Below, in pieces: positions 1,340 through 27,547 of a DNA stretch of 64,000 nt. The stretch is taken from positions 482 to 64,481 of the forward strand of contig CAZUDK010000002.1 in assembly GCA_964618905.1 (NCBI GenBank). The letters are read 5' to 3'. Under the pieces are notes generated by a model. The model was not told where the DNA came from. It saw only the letters and a list, made by a program, of their open reading frames with translations, and ran no database searches. Both the position numbers and the translations under genes were made by a program. Position 1 is the stretch's first letter, and each line of letters starts with the position of its first letter. The stretch is from an uncultured Candidatus Saccharibacteria bacterium (GTDB lineage Bacteria > Patescibacteriota > Minisyncoccia > Phycocordibacterales > Zambryskibacteraceae).

Positions 1340-2686
1340 ATGAACTACAAGGAATTATGGAAGGGGGTTTTGGTGGAAATCGAGCTTGGTGTTTCTAAAG
1401 CAAACTTCACCACCTGGTTTAAGGATACTCATATAGTTAAAGAAGAAGGAGGGGTGGTAGTGCTCTCAGTGCCTAATGCCTTTGTTAAAGAATGGCTGCT
1501 GACAAAGTACCACAACACCATCCTTAAATCTTTAAGAAATATAAACAGTTCTATAAGTGCGGTTGAGTATGTAGTTAATAAAGAAGAGTCTCGCCGGCGT
1601 GAAGATAGGGGAATGATGGAGGTTGGAGGCACCAGGGAGCTGCCACTTGAATCATCTCAAATAAACAAGAATGACAACTTAAATCCAAGATACACATTCG
1701 AGACTTTCGTAGTTGGACCATTCAACGAGCTAGCTCATGCCGCTGCCCAAGCCATCATTAAAAAGCCTGGGATTATGTACAACCCACTCTTTATATACGG
1801 CTCCACTGGACATGGTAAGACACACCTCATTCAAGCTATAGGCAACCATGTAAAGACTACCAATCCAAACAAGAAGGTTTACTACATGACTTCCGAACAG
1901 TTCGGCCAAGACTGCATGAACGCTCTCCAAAACCAAAAAATGAGTGTTTTCAAGGAAAAATACCGCCAATATGATGTTCTTATCGTAGATGATATCCAAT
2001 TTTTCTCTGAAAAACAGAAATTCCAAGAAGAACTGTTCCATTTGTTTAATACCCTCTATGACAACAATAAACAGATTATTTTCTCTTCTGATAAACACCC
2101 TCATTTCATAACAGGCCTTGAAGACAGACTTAAATCCAGAATGGCTGCAGGTATGACCGTAGACATACCAACACCAGACCAGGAATCCAGGATGGCTATT
2201 CTTTCTAAGAAAGCAGCCCAGCAAGGACTTCCTTTATCAACTGAGGTCCTAGACTTCCTGGCCAGCACCATCAATGGCAACATTAGAGAGCTTGAAGGTG
2301 TTATAAACACCTTAGCCGTACACTCACAGCTCAAAGGGAAGGAGATAAACATCTCGGATGTTAAAAATTACATAAAGAACAATGCTAAACCTAAAAAAAT
2401 AGCTGCTGTTAAGGATGTGGTTAAGATTATCTCTGATTTCTACAATATTGAAGAAGAAAGTATTTACGAGAAGACTCGGCGAAAGGAAGTTATAAAACCC
2501 AGGCAAGTCATAATGTATATCCTTAGAGAGGATTTCAATATTTCCTATCCATCTATCGGTCAAAAACTTGGAGGAAGAGACCACACTACTGTTATTCATT
2601 CTTGTGAAAAAATTAAAGGAGATATAAAAGAAGATCACACACTGCTGCAAGAAATAGGTCAGATAAGGAATCTTTTAGCTGTCTAA
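1340..2686 (+). CDS. dnaA: Chromosomal replication initiator DnaA
   Basis: 448 aa; Walker A GSTGHGKTHL, Walker B IVDDIQF, C-terminal DNA-binding domain. Confidence 0.95.
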   Translation: MNYKELWKGVLVEIELGVSKANFTTWFKDTHIVKEEGGVVVLSVPNAFVKEWLLTKYHNTILKSLRNINSSISAVEYVVNKEESRRREDRGMMEVGGTRELPLESSQINKNDNLNPRYTFETFVVGPFNELAHAAAQAIIKKPGIMYNPLFIYGSTGHGKTHLIQAIGNHVKTTNPNKKVYYMTSEQFGQDCMNALQNQKMSVFKEKYRQYDVLIVDDIQFFSEKQKFQEELFHLFNTLYDNNKQIIFSSDKHPHFITGLEDRLKSRMAAGMTVDIPTPDQESRMAILSKKAAQQGLPLSTEVLDFLASTINGNIRELEGVINTLAVHSQLKGKEINISDVKNYIKNNAKPKKIAAVKDVVKIISDFYNIEEESIYEKTRRKEVIKPRQVIMYILREDFNISYPSIGQKLGGRDHTTVIHSCEKIKGDIKEDHTLLQEIGQIRNLLAV

Positions 2687-2888: not shown

Positions 2889-3995
2889 ATGAAAATAGAA
2901 TGCATTAAAGAAAGACTTGGGGAAGCTGTGGTTAAGGCTGAAAAAATTGCTGGTAAGAATACAACTCTGCCTGCTCTTACTGGATTGTATTTAAATGTTA
3001 AAAATAATTCTTTAAACATTAAAGCTACTAATTTAGATATAGGCATTTCAATAAACATTCCCGTCAAAGTTATAGAGCCCGGAGAAATTGTTGTTCCGGC
3101 AAGTGTCTTGTCGTCTCTTATAAACTCTCTTCCTGATGATAAAAACATAACCATCTCGACTTCTTCAGACAATCAAGTTCTTGATATAAAAACCCAATCG
3201 ACAAAAACCGAGATAAAAGTTCTTCCAAGTGATGATTTTCCAATTATCTCTGAGATTAGTGATGATAAAGCTTTCTCCTTGCCAGCCAGAGACCTTGTAT
3301 TTGGCCTGAAATCAGTCATATACGCAGCTGCAGCAGGGAGTATAAAGCCAGAGCTATCTTCCATATCAATAACCTACGGAGACGGCGTTTTAACATTTGC
3401 TGCCACAGACTCATTCCGTCTTGCTGAAAAGAAAATCAGGACGAAGAAAGTACCTCATTTCAAGCAAATCCTTCTACCTTATAGAAATGCAGTCGAAATA
3501 ATAAAAATCCTTGATAAGGGAGAAACAGAAATATCAATATCCATAGAAGAGCACCAATTAGCTCTGCATTCAGAAAATATTTATATAACTTCCAGAATAA
3601 TAGAGGGAACATTTCCTGACTACAGGCAAATTATTCCGAAAGGTATCAAATCAAAAGCAGTTGTACTAAAGCAAGACCTGATAAATTCTCTTAAAACCAG
3701 CCTTATATTCTCTGATGCGTCTAATCAGATGACGCTGCATATCAGCCCAGCTAAAAATGTTTTCGAAATAGAATCAAAAAACAGCAATGTGGGTGAAAAC
3801 AAATATTCACTCGAAGCAACTCTTGAAGGGGAAGAAATAACTATTAGCGTAAACCATAGATATTTCACCGATTGTTTCTCTTCTATAAATGCAGACAGTA
3901 TCTCTTTGGAATTTGCCGGTGAATCAAGGCCAATACTTATAACACCAATAGGAGATACCAGTTTCTTGTATCTTGTGATGCCAATGAATAGGTAG
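2889..3995 (+). CDS. dnaN: DNA polymerase III beta sliding clamp
   Basis: 368 aa, three-domain clamp architecture, directly after dnaA. Confidence 0.9.
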   Translation: MKIECIKERLGEAVVKAEKIAGKNTTLPALTGLYLNVKNNSLNIKATNLDIGISINIPVKVIEPGEIVVPASVLSSLINSLPDDKNITISTSSDNQVLDIKTQSTKTEIKVLPSDDFPIISEISDDKAFSLPARDLVFGLKSVIYAAAAGSIKPELSSISITYGDGVLTFAATDSFRLAEKKIRTKKVPHFKQILLPYRNAVEIIKILDKGETEISISIEEHQLALHSENIYITSRIIEGTFPDYRQIIPKGIKSKAVVLKQDLINSLKTSLIFSDASNQMTLHISPAKNVFEIESKNSNVGENKYSLEATLEGEEITISVNHRYFTDCFSSINADSISLEFAGESRPILITPIGDTSFLYLVMPMNR

Positions 3996-4002
3996 TTTTT
4001 AA

Positions 4003-6522: not shown

Positions 6523-7926
6523 ATGAATGTAAACGATCTAGAAGAGCTTTTCACCCGCGGGGTTGGAGAATTTATCGATCCTGAAGATTCTTTCAAGAAC
6601 AAAGTTATAAAGAAAGCTGCTGGAGAGTACGATAAAGATATTGTTATAAAGCTTGGAGTAGATCCTACTAAGCCGGATATACATTTAGGTCATGCGGTCA
6701 TTCTCCGCCGCCTAAGGCAATTTCAAGATGTTGGATGTAAAGTAGTTTTTCTTATAGGAGACTTTACCGCCCAGATCGGCGACCCTACAGGCAAGAATAA
6801 AACTCGGCCGGAATTAGAACAATCAAAAGTTGCTGAAAACGCTGAGACTTATATAAATCAAGTTAGCAAGATACTGCGAACGGACAAAGAAGTTTTTTCT
6901 TGGATAAGAAATTCTGACTGGTTTACCAACATCACAGATCTGAATCTGCCTGAAGACTACAAGATAAGTCTGGATATAACTTCCGGCGGCAATACAATCA
7001 AGGCGCCCATTTCCCCGAAGTCGTTTGTAGGGAAGGCTATTGCCTATGAGCGTTCACGCATGCAGATACAAGACCTTGGACTTAAAGATAAAGTGTCGGT
7101 TATAACCCTCTCTGGTTTTCTTTGGACGCTTAAACACATTACTTACAGCAAGATTATAAACAGAGACATGTTTCAAGAGAGAATAAAGTCCGGAGAAGAG
7201 CTTTATATGCACGAGATGATGTACCCAGTTCTTCAAGGCATAGACTCTTCGGTTCTTTCTGAAGTATACGGCTCATGCGACCTGGAAATCGGCGGTACCG
7301 ATCAAACCTACAACATGCTTATGGGCCGAGACATCATGAAGTTTAATTCTCAGGAGCCTCAGTCTGTGATGGCTTTAAAAATAATTCCTGGACTGGACGG
7401 GGTAGAGAAGATGTCCAAATCTTTGAACAACTACATTTCCATAACCGATGAGTCTGGTGATATGTTTGGCAAAGTTATGTCTATTCCCGACAGCTCTATT
7501 GTGGATTATTTCACCTTGGCTACTTATACACCTATGACAGAAGTAAAGGATCTTCAAAGCAGGCTGGATAGCGGCAAGGAGAATCCTAGAGACATAAAAC
7601 TAAGATTAGCTAAAGAAATAGTTTCTATTTACCACGGAGAAAAAGAGGCTGAAAAAGCAGAAAATAATTTTATTGAAACTTTTTCCAAAGGAAGTGTACC
7701 TAAAGACATAAAGGTGGTTAAAACAGTTTCAGGCTCTAAACTCGGCGATCTACTTGTTTCAGAAGGGGTGGTGCCGTCCAAGACTGAATGGAGAAGGCTG
7801 GTTGAAGATGGAGCTGTCAGCAATATGGATTTAAAGGAAAAGATTTCTTCTCCAGATGCTAAGGTTTCCGAAAATACTACATATAAAATAGGCAAGCATC
7901 GGTTTATAAGAATAGAAATACTTTAG
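6523..7926 (+). CDS. tyrS: Tyrosine--tRNA ligase
   Basis: 467 aa; HIGH-type motif (PDIHLGHA), GDFTAQIGDPTGK, KMSKS, C-terminal S4-like domain. Confidence 0.75.
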   Translation: MNVNDLEELFTRGVGEFIDPEDSFKNKVIKKAAGEYDKDIVIKLGVDPTKPDIHLGHAVILRRLRQFQDVGCKVVFLIGDFTAQIGDPTGKNKTRPELEQSKVAENAETYINQVSKILRTDKEVFSWIRNSDWFTNITDLNLPEDYKISLDITSGGNTIKAPISPKSFVGKAIAYERSRMQIQDLGLKDKVSVITLSGFLWTLKHITYSKIINRDMFQERIKSGEELYMHEMMYPVLQGIDSSVLSEVYGSCDLEIGGTDQTYNMLMGRDIMKFNSQEPQSVMALKIIPGLDGVEKMSKSLNNYISITDESGDMFGKVMSIPDSSIVDYFTLATYTPMTEVKDLQSRLDSGKENPRDIKLRLAKEIVSIYHGEKEAEKAENNFIETFSKGSVPKDIKVVKTVSGSKLGDLLVSEGVVPSKTEWRRLVEDGAVSNMDLKEKISSPDAKVSENTTYKIGKHRFIRIEIL

Positions 7927-7940
7927 CTTTGTAAGCAATA

Positions 7941-7985
7941 AAAAACAGCCCCCACATACATGTATGTGGGGGCTGTTTTTAAAAC
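7941..7985. terminator. Bidirectional rho-independent terminator (perfect palindrome cagcccccacatacatgtatgtgggggctg flanked by A5/T5)
   Basis: Between convergent tyrS (+) and the ruvC operon (-). Confidence 0.8.
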
Positions 7986-7988
7986 TGT

Positions 7989-8156
7989 TTAAAACTCGTC
8001 TCTGTCTTCATATGGATCATCATCTTCATCAAGCTCATCATCTTCGAGCTGATCGAGACTTTCGTGATCCTCCTCCTCATCCTCTTCTTCGTCTTCAAAA
8101 TCATCCTCACTAGAAGAGTCTAATTCGTCATTATCTTTATATTCTTCGCTATCCAT
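7989..8156 (-). CDS. Very acidic micro-protein (about 55 aa, D/E-rich) at the end of the ruvB-yebC-ruvC operon
   Basis: Not in ORF track; reverse strand translates to MDSEEYKDNDELDSSSEDDFEDEEEDEEEDHESLDQLEDDELDEDDDPYEDRDEF; lies between ruvC stop and the terminator. Confidence 0.3.
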   Translation of the reverse strand: MDSEEYKDNDELDSSSEDDFEDEEEDEEEDHESLDQLEDDELDEDDDPYEDRDEF

Positions 8157-8225
8157 TTTTTATTATTATTTTTTAATAAAAAACACCATAAATTATTACG
8201 GCATTTTTTGAATGCATTATTTTTA

Positions 8226-8720
8226 TCAGATACTTTTATGGCTGGCAAGATGGGTTATACCCACCGCTATGGCATCTATCTCATCGTCGAGCACTTTATC
8301 CTTATTTGGCAGGCTTATTAGGCGCTCAACCATAGATTTTATCTGCAACTTATTTGCCTTGCCGTAGCCGGTCACGGCTATTTTTATGGCTTGAGGACTG
8401 TATTCGAAAAGCGGCAATCCGGCGCTCGCTGCTTCGAAAATTACCACTCCTCTTGCTTCAGCTACACCTATAGCACTTGTAACATTTTGGTTGAAGAACA
8501 AAGTTTCCACGGCAAAGCTGGATGGTTTATGTTCCTTAACAATTTCCTTGAAGCGCTTACCTATGTTAAGCAGTCGAATTTCTCGGCCATCTTTTGGATT
8601 TGTAACAATACATTCAGAGTGGATTAATTTCTCCTTGCCTTTGTTTTTTTCAAGGACAGCTATACCCAGCCTGTCGAAGCCGGGATCTACAGACACGACT
8701 CTTTGAGAATTAAGCGGCAT
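8226..8720 (-). CDS. ruvC: Holliday junction resolvase RuvC
   Basis: 164 aa; VVSVDPG...GIAVL catalytic N-terminus. Confidence 0.9.
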   Translation of the reverse strand: MPLNSQRVVSVDPGFDRLGIAVLEKNKGKEKLIHSECIVTNPKDGREIRLLNIGKRFKEIVKEHKPSSFAVETLFFNQNVTSAIGVAEARGVVIFEAASAGLPLFEYSPQAIKIAVTGYGKANKLQIKSMVERLISLPNKDKVLDDEIDAIAVGITHLASHKSI

Positions 8721-21555: not shown

Positions 21556-22022
21556 AACCCCAAATATTCCAAGAATTTTTCTACCCAAGGAAGCTCGTGA
21601 TATTCCTCTTCAAGAAATTTTGATAAGTTCGAGTGCAGCTTATCTACATCTGTTTTGTCTCCCAAAGGAACTACTATAAGAGGCATAAAAAATTTTTTTG
21701 ATTTCAAAAGTATTTTTGGATGTGAGTGCTCTTCATCTATCCAGAAGGATTGCAGGGTCGAATATGGGTAGAATATGTTTTCTCTAGTAATACCTTTTTC
21801 TGTAACTGAGACATCTATGATCTCGGGCTCGTGATTAAGAAAGAGGGTCAGAGAAAAAACGCTTATCAATATTAAGATGGCAAGTATGATGTTGCCAAAA
21901 ATGATAAGGGTGATGGCTATGGCTGTGACGATTATGCCCATGGCCCAGAACCAGTCGGCGCTGCGCTCCTTGTGTTCATATTCCGGCGCACCCCATTCCA
22001 TTTTGAAGGATTCTCTGCGCAT
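21552..22022 (-). CDS. Hypothetical membrane protein (2 TM + soluble domain; possibly a bacterial PH-like DUF304 type)
   Basis: 156 aa; two N-terminal hydrophobic helices. Confidence 0.35.
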   Translation of the reverse strand: MRRESFKMEWGAPEYEHKERSADWFWAMGIIVTAIAITLIIFGNIILAILILISVFSLTLFLNHEPEIIDVSVTEKGITRENIFYPYSTLQSFWIDEEHSHPKILLKSKKFFMPLIVVPLGDKTDVDKLHSNLSKFLEEEYHELPWVEKFLEYLGF

Positions 22023-22044
22023 GTTTGTAAAATAATTTTAGCAC

Positions 22045-22090
22045 ATAAAAAACAACACCCTGCCAGATTGCACAGGCTGGCAGGGTGTTT
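22045..22090 (-). terminator. Rho-independent terminator (caccctgccag...ctggcagggtg, then T-run on the minus strand)
   Basis: 11-bp stem; the minus-strand reading ends in TTGTTTTTT. Confidence 0.7.
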
Positions 22091-22104
22091 GACGGGAGCT
22101 GCCG

Positions 22105-22536
22105 TCAGGCCGCAGGAGGCAGGGGATGAAGCTCGGCAGTGAGCTGATCTTCGAATTTCTCAATGGCGGACAGCATCGATTCGATTCTCTTCATGGTTGT
22201 GAGTGGGGGTGAATTGCGGTGCATGCCGTCGATATAGAACTTGAGATCCTTGAGAGCAACTATGGCAGTGCCATTTCCTGGAGAAGTGTCTGTGAAGGAC
22301 TGGATAATTCCATCGAGCTGCCCGTCATACATCTTGGCAGTCTCGTCTTCGAGCCAGTGCCGGGTTTGCCGTTCGTATTGAGGATAAGCAACAAGCTCCT
22401 CGCGAACCTTCACCAATGCTTTCTTCAGAGCAGCGATGTCATTCCCGATTTGTCGCAGAATCTTCACCTGCCTGTTCCTTTTGGCGCGCTCGAAGGAGAT
22501 AGGCACAGAATTGCTGACGCGCATAGCTGCCTCCAA
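22105..22536 (-). CDS. Hypothetical protein, GC-rich orphan gene
   Basis: 143 aa (likely start MRVSN...); about 50-57% GC against about 40% nearby; sits next to tRNA-Ser. Confidence 0.4.
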   Translation of the reverse strand: MEAAMRVSNSVPISFERAKRNRQVKILRQIGNDIAALKKALVKVREELVAYPQYERQTRHWLEDETAKMYDGQLDGIIQSFTDTSPGNGTAIVALKDLKFYIDGMHRNSPPLTTMKRIESMLSAIEKFEDQLTAELHPLPPAA

Positions 22537-22605
22537 TTCAAGGATTTAAGAAGAACGCGATGACTAATAAAATCATGCCACAACTCATCAGTAAAGGCTA
22601 ATGTT

Positions 22606-22693
22606 TGGCGGAGGGGGTGGGATTCGAACCCACGGTGCCTTGCGACACTCTTGTTTTCAAGACAAGTGCGATAGACCACTCTGCCACCCCTCC
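22606..22693 (-). tRNA. tRNA-Ser (anticodon TGA), CCA encoded
   Basis: GGAGGGG acceptor, anticodon loop CTTGAAA, long variable arm, T-loop TTCGAAT, 3' GCCA. Confidence 0.85.
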
Positions 22694-22733
22694 TGGTTTG
22701 AATATCAAAACACAAGAAATTTCTTAAAGCAAT

Positions 22734-22973
22734 CTATCTCTCATCTACCACTTCCACTTCGTATTTTCTAGCAACGAAGAAGTAATAAATTATTTCCAGT
22801 ATTCCAAGTGTGTTAAGTACCAAGATTGCAACAAACCAGTATCTTTGTCTCAAGCTGGCAGCTTTCCATAAAGCTAAACCTTTCCAGAAAAGTATCCATA
22901 ATACTAATCCAACAAGGACAATTGGGTGCATCCCAAACCAGTCAGCGGCGCTGTTTATAGATTCTGTAGTCAT
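22734..22973 (-). CDS. Small hypothetical membrane protein (79 aa, 2 TM)
   Basis: Hydrophobic; W/Y-rich. Confidence 0.4.
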   Translation of the reverse strand: MTTESINSAADWFGMHPIVLVGLVLWILFWKGLALWKAASLRQRYWFVAILVLNTLGILEIIYYFFVARKYEVEVVDER

Positions 22974-23032
22974 GTATTAATAATACATCAGAAAAGAAGC
23001 AGTTTCTAATAAAAACTGCTATATTCAAACAG

Positions 23033-23410
23033 ATGAGATTGATAGGAATAGATTACGGAGAGAAGCGGGTCGGCATAGCTTCTACGGATGAATCCGGAGA
23101 ATTTGCTTTGCCTAGGGAAGTTTTACCCAATGATGAAAATCTCTTTAAGAAAGTCTTGGATTTGATAGAGAAGGAAGGGGTTGAAGCTGCTGTCTTAGGT
23201 GAATCAAGGAATTTGGACGGCACGCCCAATCCCATAATGAAAAAAATTCTTGATTTCAAATCCGAGCTTGAAGAAGCTGGTGTAAAAGTTTTCTTGCATC
23301 CGGAAGTTTTCACAACCATGGAAGCACGCCAGCTTCAAGGGCAGACTGGTATGACAGATGCTTCTGCAGCGGCGCTAATACTTAAAAGTTTTATTGATTC
23401 AAACAAATGA
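23033..23410 (+). CDS. yqgF: Putative pre-16S rRNA nuclease YqgF/RuvX (RuvC-like)
   Basis: MRLIGIDYGEKRVGIA N-terminus. Confidence 0.8.
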   Translation: MRLIGIDYGEKRVGIASTDESGEFALPREVLPNDENLFKKVLDLIEKEGVEAAVLGESRNLDGTPNPIMKKILDFKSELEEAGVKVFLHPEVFTTMEARQLQGQTGMTDASAAALILKSFIDSNK

Positions 23411-23739
23411 CAATCTCTATAGATGATTTCAAAAAAGTTGAGATAAAAATCGGCAAGATACTTTTTGTCGAACCGATAGAAAAGAGCGACAAGCTCCTCA
23501 AACTCTCAGTAGATTTTGCAGAAGGGGAGCCTCGCCAAGTACTCTCCGGTATTAAAAAATATTTTTCGCATCCTGAAGATCTTGCCGGTGTGAAATGCGC
23601 TTTCGCTACAAACCTCGAGCCAAGGCAGATGATGGGTATGGAAAGTCAGGCAATGCTCCTTGCTGCCTCTTCAGAAGATGGCGCTTTTTCTGTTTTGAGA
23701 GTTTCAGATGAGATTCCTGCCGGTACTAAGATAAACTAA
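23407..23739 (+). CDS. Standalone tRNA-binding domain protein (CsaA/Trbp111/MetRS C-terminal-like OB fold)
   Basis: 110 aa; FKKVEIKIGKIL...KLLKLSVDFAEGEPRQVLSGI pattern. Confidence 0.7.
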   Translation: MTISIDDFKKVEIKIGKILFVEPIEKSDKLLKLSVDFAEGEPRQVLSGIKKYFSHPEDLAGVKCAFATNLEPRQMMGMESQAMLLAASSEDGAFSVLRVSDEIPAGTKIN

Positions 23740-23745
23740 ATGTAG

Positions 23746-23829
23746 TGGGCACGAGAGGATTTGAACCTCCACCCCCTTGCGAGGACTGCGACCTGAACGC
23801 AGCGCGTCTACCAATTCCGCCACGTGCCC
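23746..23829 (-). tRNA. tRNA-Leu (anticodon CAG)
   Basis: GGGCACGTGGCGGAATTGGTAGACGCGCTGCGTTCAGGTCGCAG...; near-identical in its 5' half to E. coli tRNA-Leu(CAG); long variable arm. Confidence 0.85.
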
Positions 23830-23870
23830 GTGCAAAAAGAATACAATATGTGGTAATATCGTGCCATTCA

Positions 23871-23943
23871 GGGCGATTAGCTCAGTTGGTAGAGCAATCC
23901 GTTTACACCGGAAAGGTCGGGGGTTCAAGTCCCTCATCGCCCA
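23871..23943 (+). tRNA. tRNA-Val (anticodon TAC)
   Basis: GGGCGATTAGCTCAGTTGGTAGAGC...anticodon loop TTTACAC...GGTTCAAGTCCCTCATCGCCCA. Confidence 0.85.
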
Positions 23944-24172
23944 CAACGACTCGCGAGAAGAGCGAGCAAGCTCTTCGAGTGAAATGTCGTTTTGTAGCGA
24001 AGAGGTACTTGAAAGCCGGAGCGCGTCGGCGCGAGGCGGGGTCGAGCAAATTTTCAGCAGAAAATTATGCGTGACCAAGTCCCTCATCGCCCACCATGCT
24101 CCCTGTCGCTAAGGCGGCGTGAGCTGCACTCGGATATAATGAACGAGCCAGCTCCTTCATTAATCTTCGTTT
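23944..24172. repeat. Structured GC-rich spacer holding a 19-nt copy of the tRNA-Val 3' end (24076-24094) and repeat copy A (gcgtcggcg...aattttcagcagaaaattatgcgtg...gctccct)
   Basis: Exact 19-nt duplicate caagtccctcatcgcccac; hairpins gaagagc/gctcttc and aattttc-agca-gaaaatt; homologous to 55855-55950. Confidence 0.6.
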
Positions 24173-24244
24173 GCTCCCGTAGTTAAATGGATATAACGAC
24201 TCCCTTCTAAGGAGTAGTTCTAGGTTCGATTCCTGGCGGGAGCA
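24173..24244 (+). tRNA. tRNA-Arg (anticodon TCT)
   Basis: GCTCCCGTAGTTAAATGGATATAAC...anticodon loop CTTCTAA...GGTTCGATTCCTGGCGGGAGCA. Confidence 0.85.
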
Positions 24245-24245
24245 C

Positions 24246-24989
24246 ATGACTAATTTGGACTCCTACATTCTATACGAAGACGAACACATCCTTGTAATCA
24301 ACAAACCTGCTGGACTTGTAGTGCATCCGGATGGCGGGACAGAAGAGCCGAGCGTATCCGAGTGGTTTGCTCTAAAGTATCCGCAGTCCAAGAATGTAGG
24401 TGAGCCAATGAATGTCGGAAATGGAAAGATAATTGAGAGGCCGGGTGTAGTGCATCGGATAGATAGAGAAACCAGCGGAGTGCTTCTTCTTGCTAAAACT
24501 AATCAAGGTTTTGATGTACTAAAGAAGCAATTTCAAAACAGAGAGATAGAAAAGATTTATCATTTTTTTGTATATGGATTGGTAAAGGATGATTTCGGTA
24601 CAATCCGGCTCTCTATTGGCAGAAGTGCATCGAACTTCAAAAAGAAGTCTGCTGAAAAAGGCGCCAGAGGAGAAAAGAGGGAAGCGCTGACATATTTCAA
24701 GACTCTTAAAAGACTGCCTGAGGAAAAAGCTACGTTTGTTGAAGCAAAACCCAAGACCGGCAGGACGCATCAGATACGAGTGCATTTCAAAGCCATTCAT
24801 CACCCGCTTGTTGGAGACAAGTTATATGCTCCGAAGAAGCCTCTACTCCTTGGTTTTGACCGTTTGGCTCTGCATGCTCGTTCAGTATCTTTTATAAATG
24901 TCTCCGGCCAAGAAATTAAAGTGGAAGCCCCATATCCTGAGGATTTTCAGAATGCTCTCGACAAGGTTGAATATATTGTGTTAGATTAA
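24246..24989 (+). CDS. RluA-family pseudouridine synthase
   Basis: 247 aa; [16 protein letters not shown] catalytic Asp motif. Confidence 0.8.
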
Positions 24990-25435
24990 TGTCCACTATG
25001 AATAGAGTATTATCACCAGTAAAGATAGAAGACAGACAGAAAATCGACTTCCGAGCCGGAGACACAGTTCGCGTCTGGCAGAAAATCCAAGAAAAAGGAA
25101 AGACTCGCCTGCAGGCTTTTGAGGGTTTAGTGCTCGCTCGCAAGCATGGCAAGGAAGCAGGAGCTACCTTTACCGTGCGCAGAGTAAGTTCCGGCGTTGG
25201 AGTAGAAAAAGTTTTCCCGCTCTATTCTCCTATGATAGATAAAATAGAAGTTCTCAAGCGTTCAAAGGTTCGCCGATCCAAGCTTTATCACATCAGAGAA
25301 AAGGCTGCCAAGGATATCCGAAGACAAATGAGAAATATTCGATTGGCTAAAGACGAGCCGGAAGATGATGTCCTGGAGGCAGAAATTTCCGAAGCTCCAG
25401 AAGAGGCAGTTGAAGAAACTTCGGAGGAAAAGTAA
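24989..25435 (+). CDS. rplS: 50S ribosomal protein L19 with acidic C-terminal extension
   Basis: FRAGDTVRV...[12 protein letters not shown] core. Confidence 0.85.
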
Positions 25436-25472
25436 TATAAACTTGTCCTCTTTGGTAAATATATAAGGCTTT

Positions 25473-25555
25473 GCGCGGGTGTTGAAATTGGTAGACAAGC
25501 ATCCTTGAGGTGGATGTGCCCTTAGGGCGTGGAGGTTCAAGTCCTCTCCCGCGCA
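25473..25555 (+). tRNA. tRNA-Leu (anticodon GAG)
   Basis: GCGCGGG acceptor, D-loop AATTGGTAGAC, anticodon loop TTGAGGT, long variable arm. Confidence 0.8.
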
Positions 25556-25658
25556 CAAAAAACCGAGGGTTTTCGAGAAGTTCTAGTCCTCTACGTGACC
25601 AAGTCTTCTGATAATGATATAAAAGAATTCCCGCTAGGCTATAATTAGCTGGCAAGAT

Positions 25659-25731
25659 GGTGCCTATGGTGTAACGGTTAACACTCAAGTTTGTGGAACT
25701 TGCAATTCGGGTTCGATTCCCGGTAGGCACC
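25659..25731 (+). tRNA. tRNA-His (anticodon GTG) with encoded G-1
   Basis: G-1 pairs with discriminator C73; U8; D-stem GTGT/ACAC; anticodon loop TTGTGGA. Confidence 0.8.
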
Positions 25732-25735
25732 CAAG

Positions 25736-25924
25736 ATACAAAATTGATTGTCCTTTCTAATGAAGGGCAATTTTGTTATCTTAAGAAAAGCTAAACGGGA
25801 ATCGAACAGGAAGGGGGTCGGGGAAACTCTAGTTTCCCCGTGGAGGAAGGCAGGGCGAAGCCCGTCGGAAAACCGAGGGTTTCCGAGGAGTGAGATAGCG
25901 TAGCGTCCCGGTAGGCACCCAAAA
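25736..25924. repeat. Spacer downstream of tRNA-His: hairpin (ggggaaac/gtttcccc), module aaaaccgagggtt(t/c)ccga(g)gag (also at ~25557), and a 17-nt duplicate of the tRNA-His 3' end at 25906-25922
   Basis: Direct repeat tcccggtaggcacccaa at 25718-25734 and 25906-25922. Confidence 0.55.
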
Positions 25925-26509
25925 ATGAAAATAATTGGAATAGATTTGGATGATACTCTTCTTAACTTGAATGGAACATTCATCAAATTCCTTAACTTAA
26001 ATTATGATACGGCTTATGCAAGAGAGAATTTAACTTCTCCATTTTTTGAGGAATCTTTTGATATTACTAAAGAAGATGTATTGAAAAGGCTGCATGAATT
26101 CTATAACTCCGAACACCATGCAGAAGCAGAGCCTATCGAAGGCGCTCCAGAAGCTCTGGCAAGATTAGCTGAGGCAAATGAACTTCACATTGTTACAGCT
26201 TCGCCGGAAGAGATGAAAGATAGGATTGAGGCATGGTTAGGGAAGAATTTTACAAACAGGTTTAAGGGAATTCACTTCACCAGGAAAAGCATTTTTGATA
26301 ACTCAGTGAGAAATAAGAAGGACATTTGTGCAGAACTGGGGATTGAAGTGTTTATAGATGATGCTTTGCATAATGCTGAGGATATATCTTCAGCTGGTAT
26401 ACCTGTTTTTCTTCTGGATTCACCTTGGAACCAGAAATCAATAAATTCTCCTCTTGTAACTAGGGTTCATTCTTGGGATGATATAATTAATAAACTAGCA
26501 ATAAACTAG
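25925..26509 (+). CDS. HAD-superfamily 5'(3')-deoxyribonucleotidase-like hydrolase
   Basis: N-terminal IGIDLDDTL (DxD motif), FIDDALHNAE. Confidence 0.6.
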   Translation: MKIIGIDLDDTLLNLNGTFIKFLNLNYDTAYARENLTSPFFEESFDITKEDVLKRLHEFYNSEHHAEAEPIEGAPEALARLAEANELHIVTASPEEMKDRIEAWLGKNFTNRFKGIHFTRKSIFDNSVRNKKDICAELGIEVFIDDALHNAEDISSAGIPVFLLDSPWNQKSINSPLVTRVHSWDDIINKLAIN

Positions 26510-26555
26510 ATAGTAACGAAAGACTTATCATCTCGTCCTAATAAATACATAAAAC

Positions 26556-26930
26556 ATGGCAATTTACAGAACCACAGATCATGATGAGATCCGCAAATGG
26601 GTAGAAGAGAAAGGCGGAGAGCCTGCCGTTATCAAAGGTGTCAGCGGGTCAGAAGGTGAGGGAATATTAACATTGGTTTTTGGTCAGCCGGGGCCGGATG
26701 TGCAGGTCATCAGTTGGCAGGAGTTTTTCAACACTTTTGAAGACAACGAGTTGCGCTTTAGGTATGAGGATCCTGTACCTGCAGATGAAGCAGGTTGGGA
26801 TTTTGGATTCGAAGGCAGGGATGAACCTATGGATGAAAATGATGAGACGGAACTTCCGGAGGAAATGGATGATGTGGATGAAAATATGTTTCCTAGTGCT
26901 CCGGCCGATGAAGATGGCAGGATTCTATAG
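26556..26930 (+). CDS. Hypothetical protein with acidic C-terminal tail
   Basis: 124 aa; MAIYRTTDHDEIRKWVEEKGGEPA...; no confident family. Confidence 0.4.
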   Translation: MAIYRTTDHDEIRKWVEEKGGEPAVIKGVSGSEGEGILTLVFGQPGPDVQVISWQEFFNTFEDNELRFRYEDPVPADEAGWDFGFEGRDEPMDENDETELPEEMDDVDENMFPSAPADEDGRIL

Positions 26931-26986
26931 GTGCCAGACTAACTTTCTCAGCTAGATGCCTCAGCTTCAGCAAGCTATAATGAGAC

Positions 26987-27547
26987 ATGGCTCGAGTTAG
27001 GTATCTTCATCATATTTTGCGCGATACTCTTATCGTTCTTGCTAGCATAGTTCTTGCATACCTTCTTTTAAAAGAAGGCGCTATAGAAAGTTTCTTAGCT
27101 TCTACAGGAGACTCGCTTATAATCTCAAGCTTCCTGGCGGGAGCATTTTTTACTTCAATCTTCACCATAGCGCCTGCGGGGGTGGCGCTTGTAGCCATCG
27201 GCCAGTCTTATCATCCGCTAGCTGTCGCTCTCTTTGGTGCATTGGGAGCTATGTGTGTTGATCTCGGTTTGCTTCTGCTCGTTAGAAAAGATTTAACGAG
27301 TGCTGAGATGATAGCTGGCAAGGTATTTCGTTTCCGCAGGCTTATTATCAAAGGTTTTCACTTTGGTTTGCTTAAATGGTTTGCATTTATTGCAGGCATA
27401 TTTCTTATAGCTTCTCCTGCCCCTGACGAGGTAGGGCTGTTTCTCTTAGGTGCTTCCAAGATTAATTCTAAATTGCTGCCTGCTGTTTTCTTTACAGCTA
27501 ACTTTTTAGGTATTTGGGCGATTCTGTCTATTGCAGCCGCTCTGTAA
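26987..27547 (+). CDS. Hypothetical integral membrane protein (about 5 TM)
   Basis: 186 aa hydrophobic. Confidence 0.45.
   Translation: MARVRYLHHILRDTLIVLASIVLAYLLLKEGAIESFLASTGDSLIISSFLAGAFFTSIFTIAPAGVALVAIGQSYHPLAVALFGALGAMCVDLGLLLLVRKDLTSAEMIAGKVFRFRRLIIKGFHFGLLKWFAFIAGIFLIASPAPDEVGLFLLGASKINSKLLPAVFFTANFLGIWAILSIAAAL

Follow-up and report, generated by a model that had tools for sequence, protein, structure and literature searches.

Integrative elements that target tRNA genes (P4-type islands, the integrative and conjugative elements of actinomycetes, tycheposons) insert in the 3' part of the tRNA from the T-loop on, carry a replacement 3' end, leave the displaced partial tRNA as a direct repeat and form stacked relics. 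The same traits are found in a 64-kb stretch of patescibacterial DNA (the window), where a 188-nt block at positions 25718-25905 stands in the 3' end of a tRNA-His gene. However, the known elements span kilobases and bring a tyrosine recombinase gene of their own, whereas the units described here measure 90-230 nt and hold no open reading frame (ORF). Unlike those elements, they also bear an arm antisense to the target and a conserved structured core, and they use the ends of protein genes as well. Tested as an integrase island, the locus shows the direct repeats of the tRNA 3' part but neither a recombinase gene nor cargo between them. We propose that the block is one copy of a family of miniature protein-less insertion elements of the Patescibacteria, or Candidate Phyla Radiation (CPR), that moves as a folded single strand, a reading to which we assign a probability of roughly 55%. 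The genomes of CPR bacteria are, to our knowledge, tiny, with few mobile elements recognised in them. If the proposal is right, a protein-less family hitting the ends of tRNA, transfer-messenger RNA (tmRNA)-like and housekeeping genes would be an unrecognised force shaping these genomes.

Other described systems share single traits with these units. MITEs (miniature inverted-repeat transposable elements), the palindrome-associated transposable elements of IS200/IS605 and the guide RNAs of TnpB and IscB are likewise small, non-autonomous and hairpin-rich, and in TnpB guide RNAs a structured scaffold is also directly followed by flanking target sequence. Unlike MITEs, the present units have no element-specific terminal inverted repeats (the repeat formed by the arm and the second gene-end copy is target sequence and differs per target), and their direct repeats are 14-44 nt long. 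The test for IS200/IS605/TnpB failed, with no common motif at -8 to -1 of the non-tRNA targets and no copy having room for such a gene or standing beside tnpB, iscB or tnpA; so did that for casposons and Cas1 (14-15 bp duplication, terminal inverted repeats, cas1), the repeats being 14-44 nt long, with no cas1 and no protein gene. The Dada DNA transposons also target small-RNA genes, tRNA genes included, and rebuild the gene with a carried piece of the target, but according to one account (PMC8869645) and general knowledge they are eukaryotic, protein-coding, several kilobases long and flanked by 6-7 bp target-site duplications.

The insertion at tRNA-His

tRNA calling by ARAGORN and Rfam yielded eight tRNA genes in the window. 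The initial annotation had reported a duplicated tRNA-His tail, a 22-nt module present twice and a GC hairpin between the tRNA-His copies, and all three were recovered. The 17-nt tail TCCCGGTAGGCACCCAA lies exactly at 25718-25734 and 25906-25922 (2 copies per 64 kb, shuffle expectation 0.06) and is the sole pair in 64 kb even when up to 3 mismatches are allowed; the module occupies 25559-25580 and 25869-25890 (2 copies in 64 kb, shuffle expectation 0.00), and the hairpin, of 8-9 bp (cggggaaac / gtttccccg), 25819-25840. At 25796-25807 the T-loop and T-stem of tRNA-His appear once more, inverted, as CGGGAATCGAAC. The parts of the locus are as follows.

25660-25732, plus strand: intact tRNA-His(GTG) gene (ARAGORN; Rfam tRNA 59.6 bits); its last 15 nt (from T60) lie within direct-repeat copy 1
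25718-25905: inserted block, 188 nt, no credible ORF; 171 nt between the direct repeats
25718-25734, plus strand: direct-repeat copy 1 (X1), TCCCGGTAGGCACCCAA, the functional tRNA-His 3' end plus 2 nt and the left edge of the block
25735-25795, plus strand: element-borne spacer with a terminator-like hairpin, a T-rich tail and then a decayed antisense copy of the acceptor strand
25796-25807, plus strand: arm CGGGAATCGAAC, exact reverse complement of tRNA-His from -7 to +5 at the repeat boundary (12/12 match)
25810-25887, plus strand: conserved core of type R1 (covariance model R1, 89.2 bits, E = 3e-21)
preceding Pa: core segment J1, GAAGGGGGT
25819-25840: core hairpin Pa
between Pa and Pb: core segment J2, TGGAGGAAGGCA
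25853-25863: core hairpin Pb, a GGGC-GAA-GCCC mini-hairpin
25865-25886: core hairpin Pc, TCGGAAA / ACCGAGGG / TTTCCGA
25888-25905, plus strand: linker GAGTGAGATAGCGTAGCG, a mutated T-loop copy (GTGAGAT against GTTCGAT) followed by a GCGTAGC mini-hairpin
25906-25922, plus strand: direct-repeat copy 2 (X2), the displaced original tRNA-His 3' end with its native flank; the ATG of a HAD gene follows at 25925

The insertion site falls at the T-loop/T-stem boundary of tRNA-His (position 59/60). The gene end is present in triplicate, direct (X1), inverted (the arm, or anti-X) and direct again (X2), with two hairpin-forming segments between the copies: the spacer and the conserved three-hairpin core. 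The spacer hairpin has an outer stem, 25735-25746 with 25768-25780, and an inner stem at 25746-25772 (terminator scan and folding), and the homologous spacer in locus L016 shows compensated changes. The arm corresponds to the T-loop and the 3' strand of the T-stem and is separated from the core by 2 nt. The module at 25869-25890 consists of the 3' two-thirds of Pc plus GGAG, and the linker is conserved between elements at different tRNAs.

Locus L093, a relative 55% identical in its HAD protein, has an empty site: tRNA-His and 2 nt are followed there by ATGAAAATAA, which is the junction after copy 2 in the window. Therefore 25906-25922 is the original 3' end and 25718-25905 was inserted. The block is present in some relatives of the same synteny and absent in another. 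It is shown to be a structured unit that lacks a protein, is polymorphic as an insertion and restores the end of the gene, and the reading of the duplications as insertion scars, instead of conserved spacers or a local tandem duplication, is supported. The initial annotation had allowed for both of these simpler outcomes; neither is borne out by the empty site in L093 and by a module dispersed across genomes (below), and the intervening 171 nt are no copy of flanking sequence. That local duplication, assembly artefact or chance similarity of T-arms lies behind the pattern we consider refuted, with a negligible chance of being true. Contigs from short reads of other samples do break or switch inside the element, and tRNA T-arms do share GGTTCGA-type sequence, but shuffles yield no chance matches and the same multi-part architecture recurs in independent assemblies from many projects.

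The element supplies tRNA-His with a new 3' end and its own terminator (hairpin 25746-25772 with T-rich tail), the old end being displaced 188 nt downstream. Terminators were likewise found by the terminator scan in the spacers behind other tRNAs. In L089, where the 5' end of a protein gene is the target, translation places an in-frame start codon in the spacer (protein MNNTR... against MAK... for the displaced original), and several spacers at 5'-end targets hold, by eye only, TATAAT-like boxes toward the gene. Copies 1 and 2 of L079 differ at 5 of 46 nt, all five differences being synonymous. L079 and the rebuilt ends favour a scheme in which copy 1 and the spacer would be a gene end carried by the element, like an attP site; templated duplication is weakly disfavoured (our own estimate p about 0.1).

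In L093 tRNA-His ends 2 nt before the HAD ATG (3999-4001). The two genes are probably co-transcribed there, because they abut; the insertion in the window separates them. tRNA genes abutting start codons suggest tRNA-mRNA co-transcripts, and the inserted terminator would now interrupt the tRNA-His one. Through its terminator or, in L089, through a new start codon, the element probably rewires transcription next to conserved genes.

A structured family across the Patescibacteria

A scan for AACCGAGGGTTTYCGAG over one genome per species gave 90 matches, about the number expected by chance. Nineteen of them lie in Patescibacteria, and all 19 share some 80 more conserved bases upstream, with the family consensus GGAAGGGGTCGGG, Pa, CGTGNAGGAAGG, a variable Pb and TCGGAAA-ACCGAGGG-TTTCCGA. 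The covariance model R1, built from 18 copies, recovers all 19 patescibacterial loci and none of the ~70 chance matches to AACCGAGGGTTTYCGAG outside the CPR; applied to the window, it finds 25807-25890 at 89 bits and otherwise only a Pc fragment behind tRNA-Leu. With 46 further loci from a metagenome scan, the full core is present in 19 + 46 loci at 47-97 bits, and the true family is probably broader than the collected set.

The targets comprise more than 12 tRNA species, among them His, Arg (three anticodons), Trp, Ser (two), Tyr, Lys, Gly, Val and Leu (two), as well as a tmRNA-like 3' end. Protein genes are hit at their 5' as well as their 3' ends, namely at the N-terminus of MurI and of a glycosyltransferase (opposite strand) and at one C-terminus (same strand). 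The tRNA-associated repeat family suggested by the initial annotation, with its module to be sought elsewhere, is thus real, 19 Patescibacteria genomes and 46 metagenome contigs carrying the full element at many tRNAs; a restriction to tRNA genes does not hold. The element has no match in phages, plasmids or viral genomes (0 in IMG/VR, INPHARED and PLSDB). Rfam matched only tRNAs, with E up to 5 over 22000-27500 and, in the case of the enlarged L026 variant (below), up to 1, and the searched literature, queried also with the sequence itself, holds no description of it. We conclude that this small structured element family across the Patescibacteria is previously undescribed or, conservatively put, a new variant of gene-end-restoring insertion elements.

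On the window strand the parts follow in the order intact gene end (copy 1), spacer, arm, core, linker, copy 2 and native flank, and the window copy has every family part in order. Over 43 distinct sequences 98.5% of the cells of the core are paired and 8 pairs show compensatory changes; these values are reached by none of 500 shuffles and collapse in slid controls. Pb, which is outside the counted pairs, is wholly different in sequence between copies and by eye a hairpin in most, often with GCGAAGC. Such G-T or G-U pairs as occur, few in number, speak for the strand shown. The core is highly conserved across CPR classes, its junction purines included. The linker is conserved within sub-lineages and is usually the target T-loop with 1-2 central changes (GTTCGAT to GTGAGAT, GTTCAAT to GTTCTAT, GTTCAAAT to GTTCATAT). 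Copy 2 measures 14-44 nt; the repeats always reach the gene end and usually stop 0-3 nt past the end of a tRNA. In one sub-lineage (L033, L097, L116, L119) an extra conserved segment, AGGAGGATAGGAGCGCCAGCGACG, lies between arm and core, and a second GGGGGTCGGGG motif directly after Pc pairs back to the arm region.

All of the ~65 loci hold units of 90-230 nt with no ORF and no cargo, and in every copy, with the search extending up to 13 kb upstream of the core, copy 1 starts 87-167 nt ahead of the module. Such uniformity bears on whether the units are tyrosine-integrase islands or prophages that have collapsed until only attL and attR are left, the core being the attP-proximal region. Direct repeats reaching from the T-loop over the tRNA 3' end, like those of classical att sites, would fit this origin, and so would relics stacked behind tRNA-Leu and spacers resembling gene flanks captured from an earlier host, L079 with its synonymous-only differences included. 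We nevertheless regard it as quite unlikely, since independent deletions would vary the endpoints, an arm flush with a covarying structured core is foreign to attP arms, and the viral, phage and plasmid collections gave no match. Nor was an integrase seen in the window or recurring in neighbouring DNA. Neighbouring ORFs clustered across 65 loci are housekeeping genes only (e.g., MurI, RuvA, ClpB), with no recurring partner, and no recombinase was seen on reading the N-termini of all 64 window ORFs and running Pfam on 10 unclear ones. The integrase or recombinase that the initial annotation had looked to is therefore not evident among the ORFs of the window. Its notion of repeated integration and excision survives in the stacked relics at tRNA-Leu(GAG), but not as an integrase-type island. 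A guide RNA beside a nuclease was rejected along with the integrase island, as only short forms occur up to 13 kb upstream of the core.

An arm that follows its host, and how the element may move

Throughout the family the arm lies 1-3 nt from the core and spans the junction: counted from the repeat start, it reverse-complements the resident target exactly, from near -8 up to a position between +5 and +12. Among the tRNA-His elements of the window, L016 and L099 it matches its own tRNA at 12/12, 16/16 and 16/16 positions, though the tRNAs differ. L097 and L116, which seem to represent one locus of two related genomes, differ by C/A in the gene and correspondingly in the arm, and the arm tracks the host sequence likewise in L079 versus L089 and in L134. 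Either the pairing of arm and target would be under selection or the arm would be re-templated at each insertion; an arm that keeps pace with its host suggests target recognition by base pairing.

In the proposed mechanism the element would move as a folded single strand, either single-stranded DNA (ssDNA) or RNA/cDNA. By pairing with the borne gene end, the arm would put a likeness of the target duplex on display, the core forming the loop. It could pair with copy 1, leaving the spacer as tip, or with linker and copy 2, leaving the core as tip; the two hairpins share the arm and are mutually exclusive. The folded strand would thus display the target as a hairpin stem with central mismatches, and an enzyme encoded elsewhere would recombine or prime it into a matching gene end, with only those insertions surviving that rebuild the end. 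At tRNA-His the expected empty-site junction is GGGTTCGAT-TCCCGGTAGGCACCCAA-AAATGAAAATAA, and an excised circle or tandem junction would read GATAGCGTAGCG-TCCCGGTAGGCACCCAA-GATACAAAATTG (linker-X-spacer). GCGNAGC mini-hairpins are very stable in DNA, and their recurrence here would suit ssDNA.

A structural likeness is offered by integron attC sites and the attP(+) hairpin of CTX phage used by XerCD. There, as here, a stem reproduces the recombination site, structure counts for more than sequence, the central part varies and the stem carries mismatched or extra-helical bases, to which the imperfect pairing of the arm with the mutated T-loop of the linker may correspond. The likeness would be structural only: the present stem differs per target, and no GTTRRRY R-box, cassette array, intI or dif-like site accompanies it. 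Accordingly, the test for attC failed: the boundary falls after GTTCGAT and not at G|TT, the R''/R' boxes (RYYYAAC / GTTRRRY) are not matched, copies are single and the window showed no intI.

An arm that co-varies with the resident gene in apparently the same loci (L097 and L116; the tRNA-His elements), a core highly conserved across CPR classes and two mutually exclusive hairpins would also be expected of a cis-acting module maintained by the host. Such a module might serve as terminator or insulator, or as an RNA switch whose arm alternates between copy 1 and the decoy copy 2, and it would control the maturation of the tRNA or mRNA or the expression of the downstream gene; the separation of tRNA-His from a HAD gene with which it is apparently co-transcribed in L093 may speak for this as well. 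Against it, the block is missing from a relative of the same synteny, the targets are unrelated genes hit at 5' and 3' ends alike, decayed and truncated relics exist, and one architecture is common to three or more unrelated core types (below). We think a host-maintained module distinctly improbable.

The identity of the arm and of both gene-end copies with host sequence would be explained most simply if all three were templated at insertion, as in a retroelement resembling short interspersed nuclear elements. A reverse transcriptase encoded elsewhere would here write the core RNA into a target that has been nicked (target-primed reverse transcription), with a long and variable target-site duplication arising from staggered nicks and the inverted arm from snap-back synthesis. 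Repeats that vary from 14 to 44 nt yet always reach the gene end agree with this. The succession of guide, scaffold and 3' target-sense tail also resembles, by general knowledge, a prime-editing guide RNA, an analogy at most, and reverse transcriptases of the diversity-generating type occur in a related genome. But none is linked to the element, the repeats usually stop 0-3 nt past the tRNA end instead of being scattered, and the spacers suit their target (terminators after tRNAs, the start codon in L089), which a captured native flank fits better; the synonymous-only differences of L079 count weakly against it too (our own estimate p about 0.1). We judge this route unlikely. A tRNA primer, as at a retroviral primer-binding site, was also considered and rejected: a start at position 59/60 fits, but the repeats lack CCA, enter the trailer and occur at protein genes.

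Returning to movement as a folded strand, it is possible, though doubtful, that the arm truly acts as a guide and that the core, as RNA or ssDNA, adopts a fold which is catalytic or recruits an enzyme; the element would then home under guidance while encoding no protein itself. By base pairing it would find a site of 20 nt at the end of a conserved gene, insert there and rebuild the gene, either with no element-encoded protein needed or with a CPR enzyme still to be recognised, and a single direct-inverted-direct logic of insertion would be common to three or more core types. The internal guide of group I introns (P10-P1) resembles the arm in running anti-downstream and then anti-upstream across the insertion point of the uninterrupted target, and the arm likewise stands immediately 5' of a conserved core; hammerhead and twister ribozymes are circularly permuted, as is the core in L096 (below). 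The guide-like arm, the permutation and the conserved junction purines are indirect hints of a self-cleaving or self-inserting ribozyme. In contrast to group I and II introns, the core of 60-100 nt is too small, it has no Rfam match and an intact tRNA precedes it, so that splicing is unneeded; catalysis would be by analogy only. A tRNA intron was rejected as unnecessary, given the intact tRNA with its own terminator ahead of the core. If recognition does proceed by pairing, the element would combine guide and scaffold in a very small system that nature itself retargets, and it would offer a way to the partner enzyme; units of ~190 nt would be the smallest known guided homing elements.

Several points weigh against the proposal that the block is a mobile folded-strand element. 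Neither a mobility intermediate nor a partner enzyme was found, and the scheme itself offers no account of how each new host comes to be matched by arm and repeats alike. The only empty site, that of L093, comes from a relative as distant as 55% identity in the HAD protein; none was found in a near-identical strain, exact look-ups of the HAD and L19 proteins returning only short contigs, and the breaks and switches of short-read contigs inside the element keep strain-level polymorphism from being demonstrable. The members were collected by an exact 17- or 21-mer, by which the apparent conservation of Pc is inflated. Folded as a single sequence, the R1 copy of the window is no better than shuffles (z = -0.26 as RNA, -1.95 as DNA; z = -0.98 in a further fold). 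Speaking against a core transcribed from the tRNA promoter, a terminator stands between the two, and no promoter was predicted.

Other cores and further copies in the window

A screen of all 125 tRNAs of the collected loci for duplicated tails revealed further elements with the same layout and other cores. One of these (type 2) is found in the window at tRNA-Val, where the duplication of the tRNA 3' end seen by the initial annotation, 19 nt recurring at 24076-24094, is real. Behind tRNA-Leu(GAG) the window holds relics of both types.

23871-23944, plus strand: intact tRNA-Val(TAC) gene (ARAGORN and Rfam)
23926-23944, plus strand: tRNA-Val direct-repeat copy 1
23945-24075, plus strand: type-2 element at tRNA-Val, same layout as the R1 element
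23945-23991: type-2 structured spacer
23997-24013: type-2 arm GCGAAGAGGTACTTGAA, 15/18 complementary to the 3' part of tRNA-Val
24014-24075: type-2 core, ending in GTGAC
24076-24094, plus strand: displaced tRNA-Val 3' end (copy 2), CAAGTCCCTCATCGCCCAC
25473-25556: tRNA-Leu(GAG) gene (ARAGORN and Rfam)
25556-25592, plus strand: R1 relic of which only the 3' Pc part is left (module 25559-25580), then a mutated T-loop/T-stem copy, GTTCTAGTCCTCT
25593-25609, plus strand: older type-2 relic, an ACGTGAC 3' end fused with CAAGTCTTCT, in which the Leu T-loop/T-stem CAAGTCCTCT is copied in decayed form

The type-2 element folds with z = -5.25, its closing helix being formed by the arm with copy 2, and its core is shared with an element at tRNA-Cys in L113 (CGCGAGSCGGGGTCG...AATTATNNGTGAC). 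The R1 model matches the relic at 25556-25575 (13.5 bits), the T-arm-like copy 3' of tRNA-Leu spans 25577-25592, and L139 has a full R1 element at tRNA-Leu(GAG). The stack of a proximal R1 relic and a distal, older type-2 relic points to successive insertions at a single site. The initial annotation had treated gtgaccaagtc, shared between this spot and the tRNA-Val spacer, as a repeat module. CGTGACCAAGTC does recur (24070-24081 and 25594-25605; 2 copies in 64 kb, shuffle expectation 0.16), but it is not an independent module: it joins the type-2 end GTGAC to CAAGTC, the T-loop remainder of tRNA-Val and tRNA-Leu(GAG).

A third core type stands at a tmRNA-like 3' end in L006 (3517-3676; GGGTATTCC...GGAAACCCC...GAAGGAGGAGCGAGC...), with copy 1, terminator, arm, core and copy 2, and the homologous tmRNA-like gene in L138 holds an R1 element. 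At least three unrelated core types with one architecture point to a mobility mechanism over a single regulatory function. Two R1 relatives depart further. The enlarged, diverged one after tRNA-Tyr in L026 (1620-1864; 229 nt, 27.5 bits) has extra hairpins and a different Pc, and its copy 2 differs from tRNA-Tyr at two adjacent acceptor-stem positions. In the 3' flank of tRNA-Ile in L096 (model match 2344-2426, minus strand) the R1 core is circularly permuted to the order Pa 3' strand, J2, Pb, Pc, J1, Pa 5' strand, with Pa as an open helix and Pc running into J1; the usual arm and duplicated tRNA tail are kept. Short tail duplications with gaps of 28-70 nt and neither an R1 nor a type-2 core occur in the 3' flanks of tRNA-Lys in L095, tRNA-Trp in L120 and tRNA-Met in L006, and tail duplication seems common at tRNA genes of the sampled CPR contigs.

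The family may also be a source of annotation and assembly errors, namely partial tRNAs, contig breaks and chimeras. In L140 (positions 1-60; Logan SRR11843829) the HAD gene, copy 2 and core are identical to those of the window, while the spacer hairpin and arm differ (CTGTAGAAATCGAAC, which matches another tRNA); this is either another copy of the element that has recombined via the core or a k-mer chimera to which the repeat gave rise. Locus L093 carries two gene pairs of diversity-generating-retroelement type (bAvd and reverse transcriptase) at 199-1595 and 7414-8573, and two HNH-motif ORFs inserted between tRNA-Leu(GAG) and tRNA-His at 3030-3915.

The window is ~43% G+C, starts with dnaA- and dnaN-like genes and otherwise holds housekeeping genes only. 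The last 15 nt of tRNA-Arg(TCT), TTCCTGGCGGGAGCA, recur 2.9 kb downstream at 27131-27145 within a membrane-protein ORF (26987-27547); as a third duplication this match was rejected for being near chance (by a rough estimate, ~0.06 such matches are expected), and it is probably a coincidence. The same tRNA gene ends 1 nt before the ATG of an RluA-like gene (24245-24246). The tRNA-Ser(TGA) gene at 22606-22693 encodes its 3' CCA (end CCGCCA), which the tRNA-His, Val, Leu, Arg and Lys genes of the window do not.

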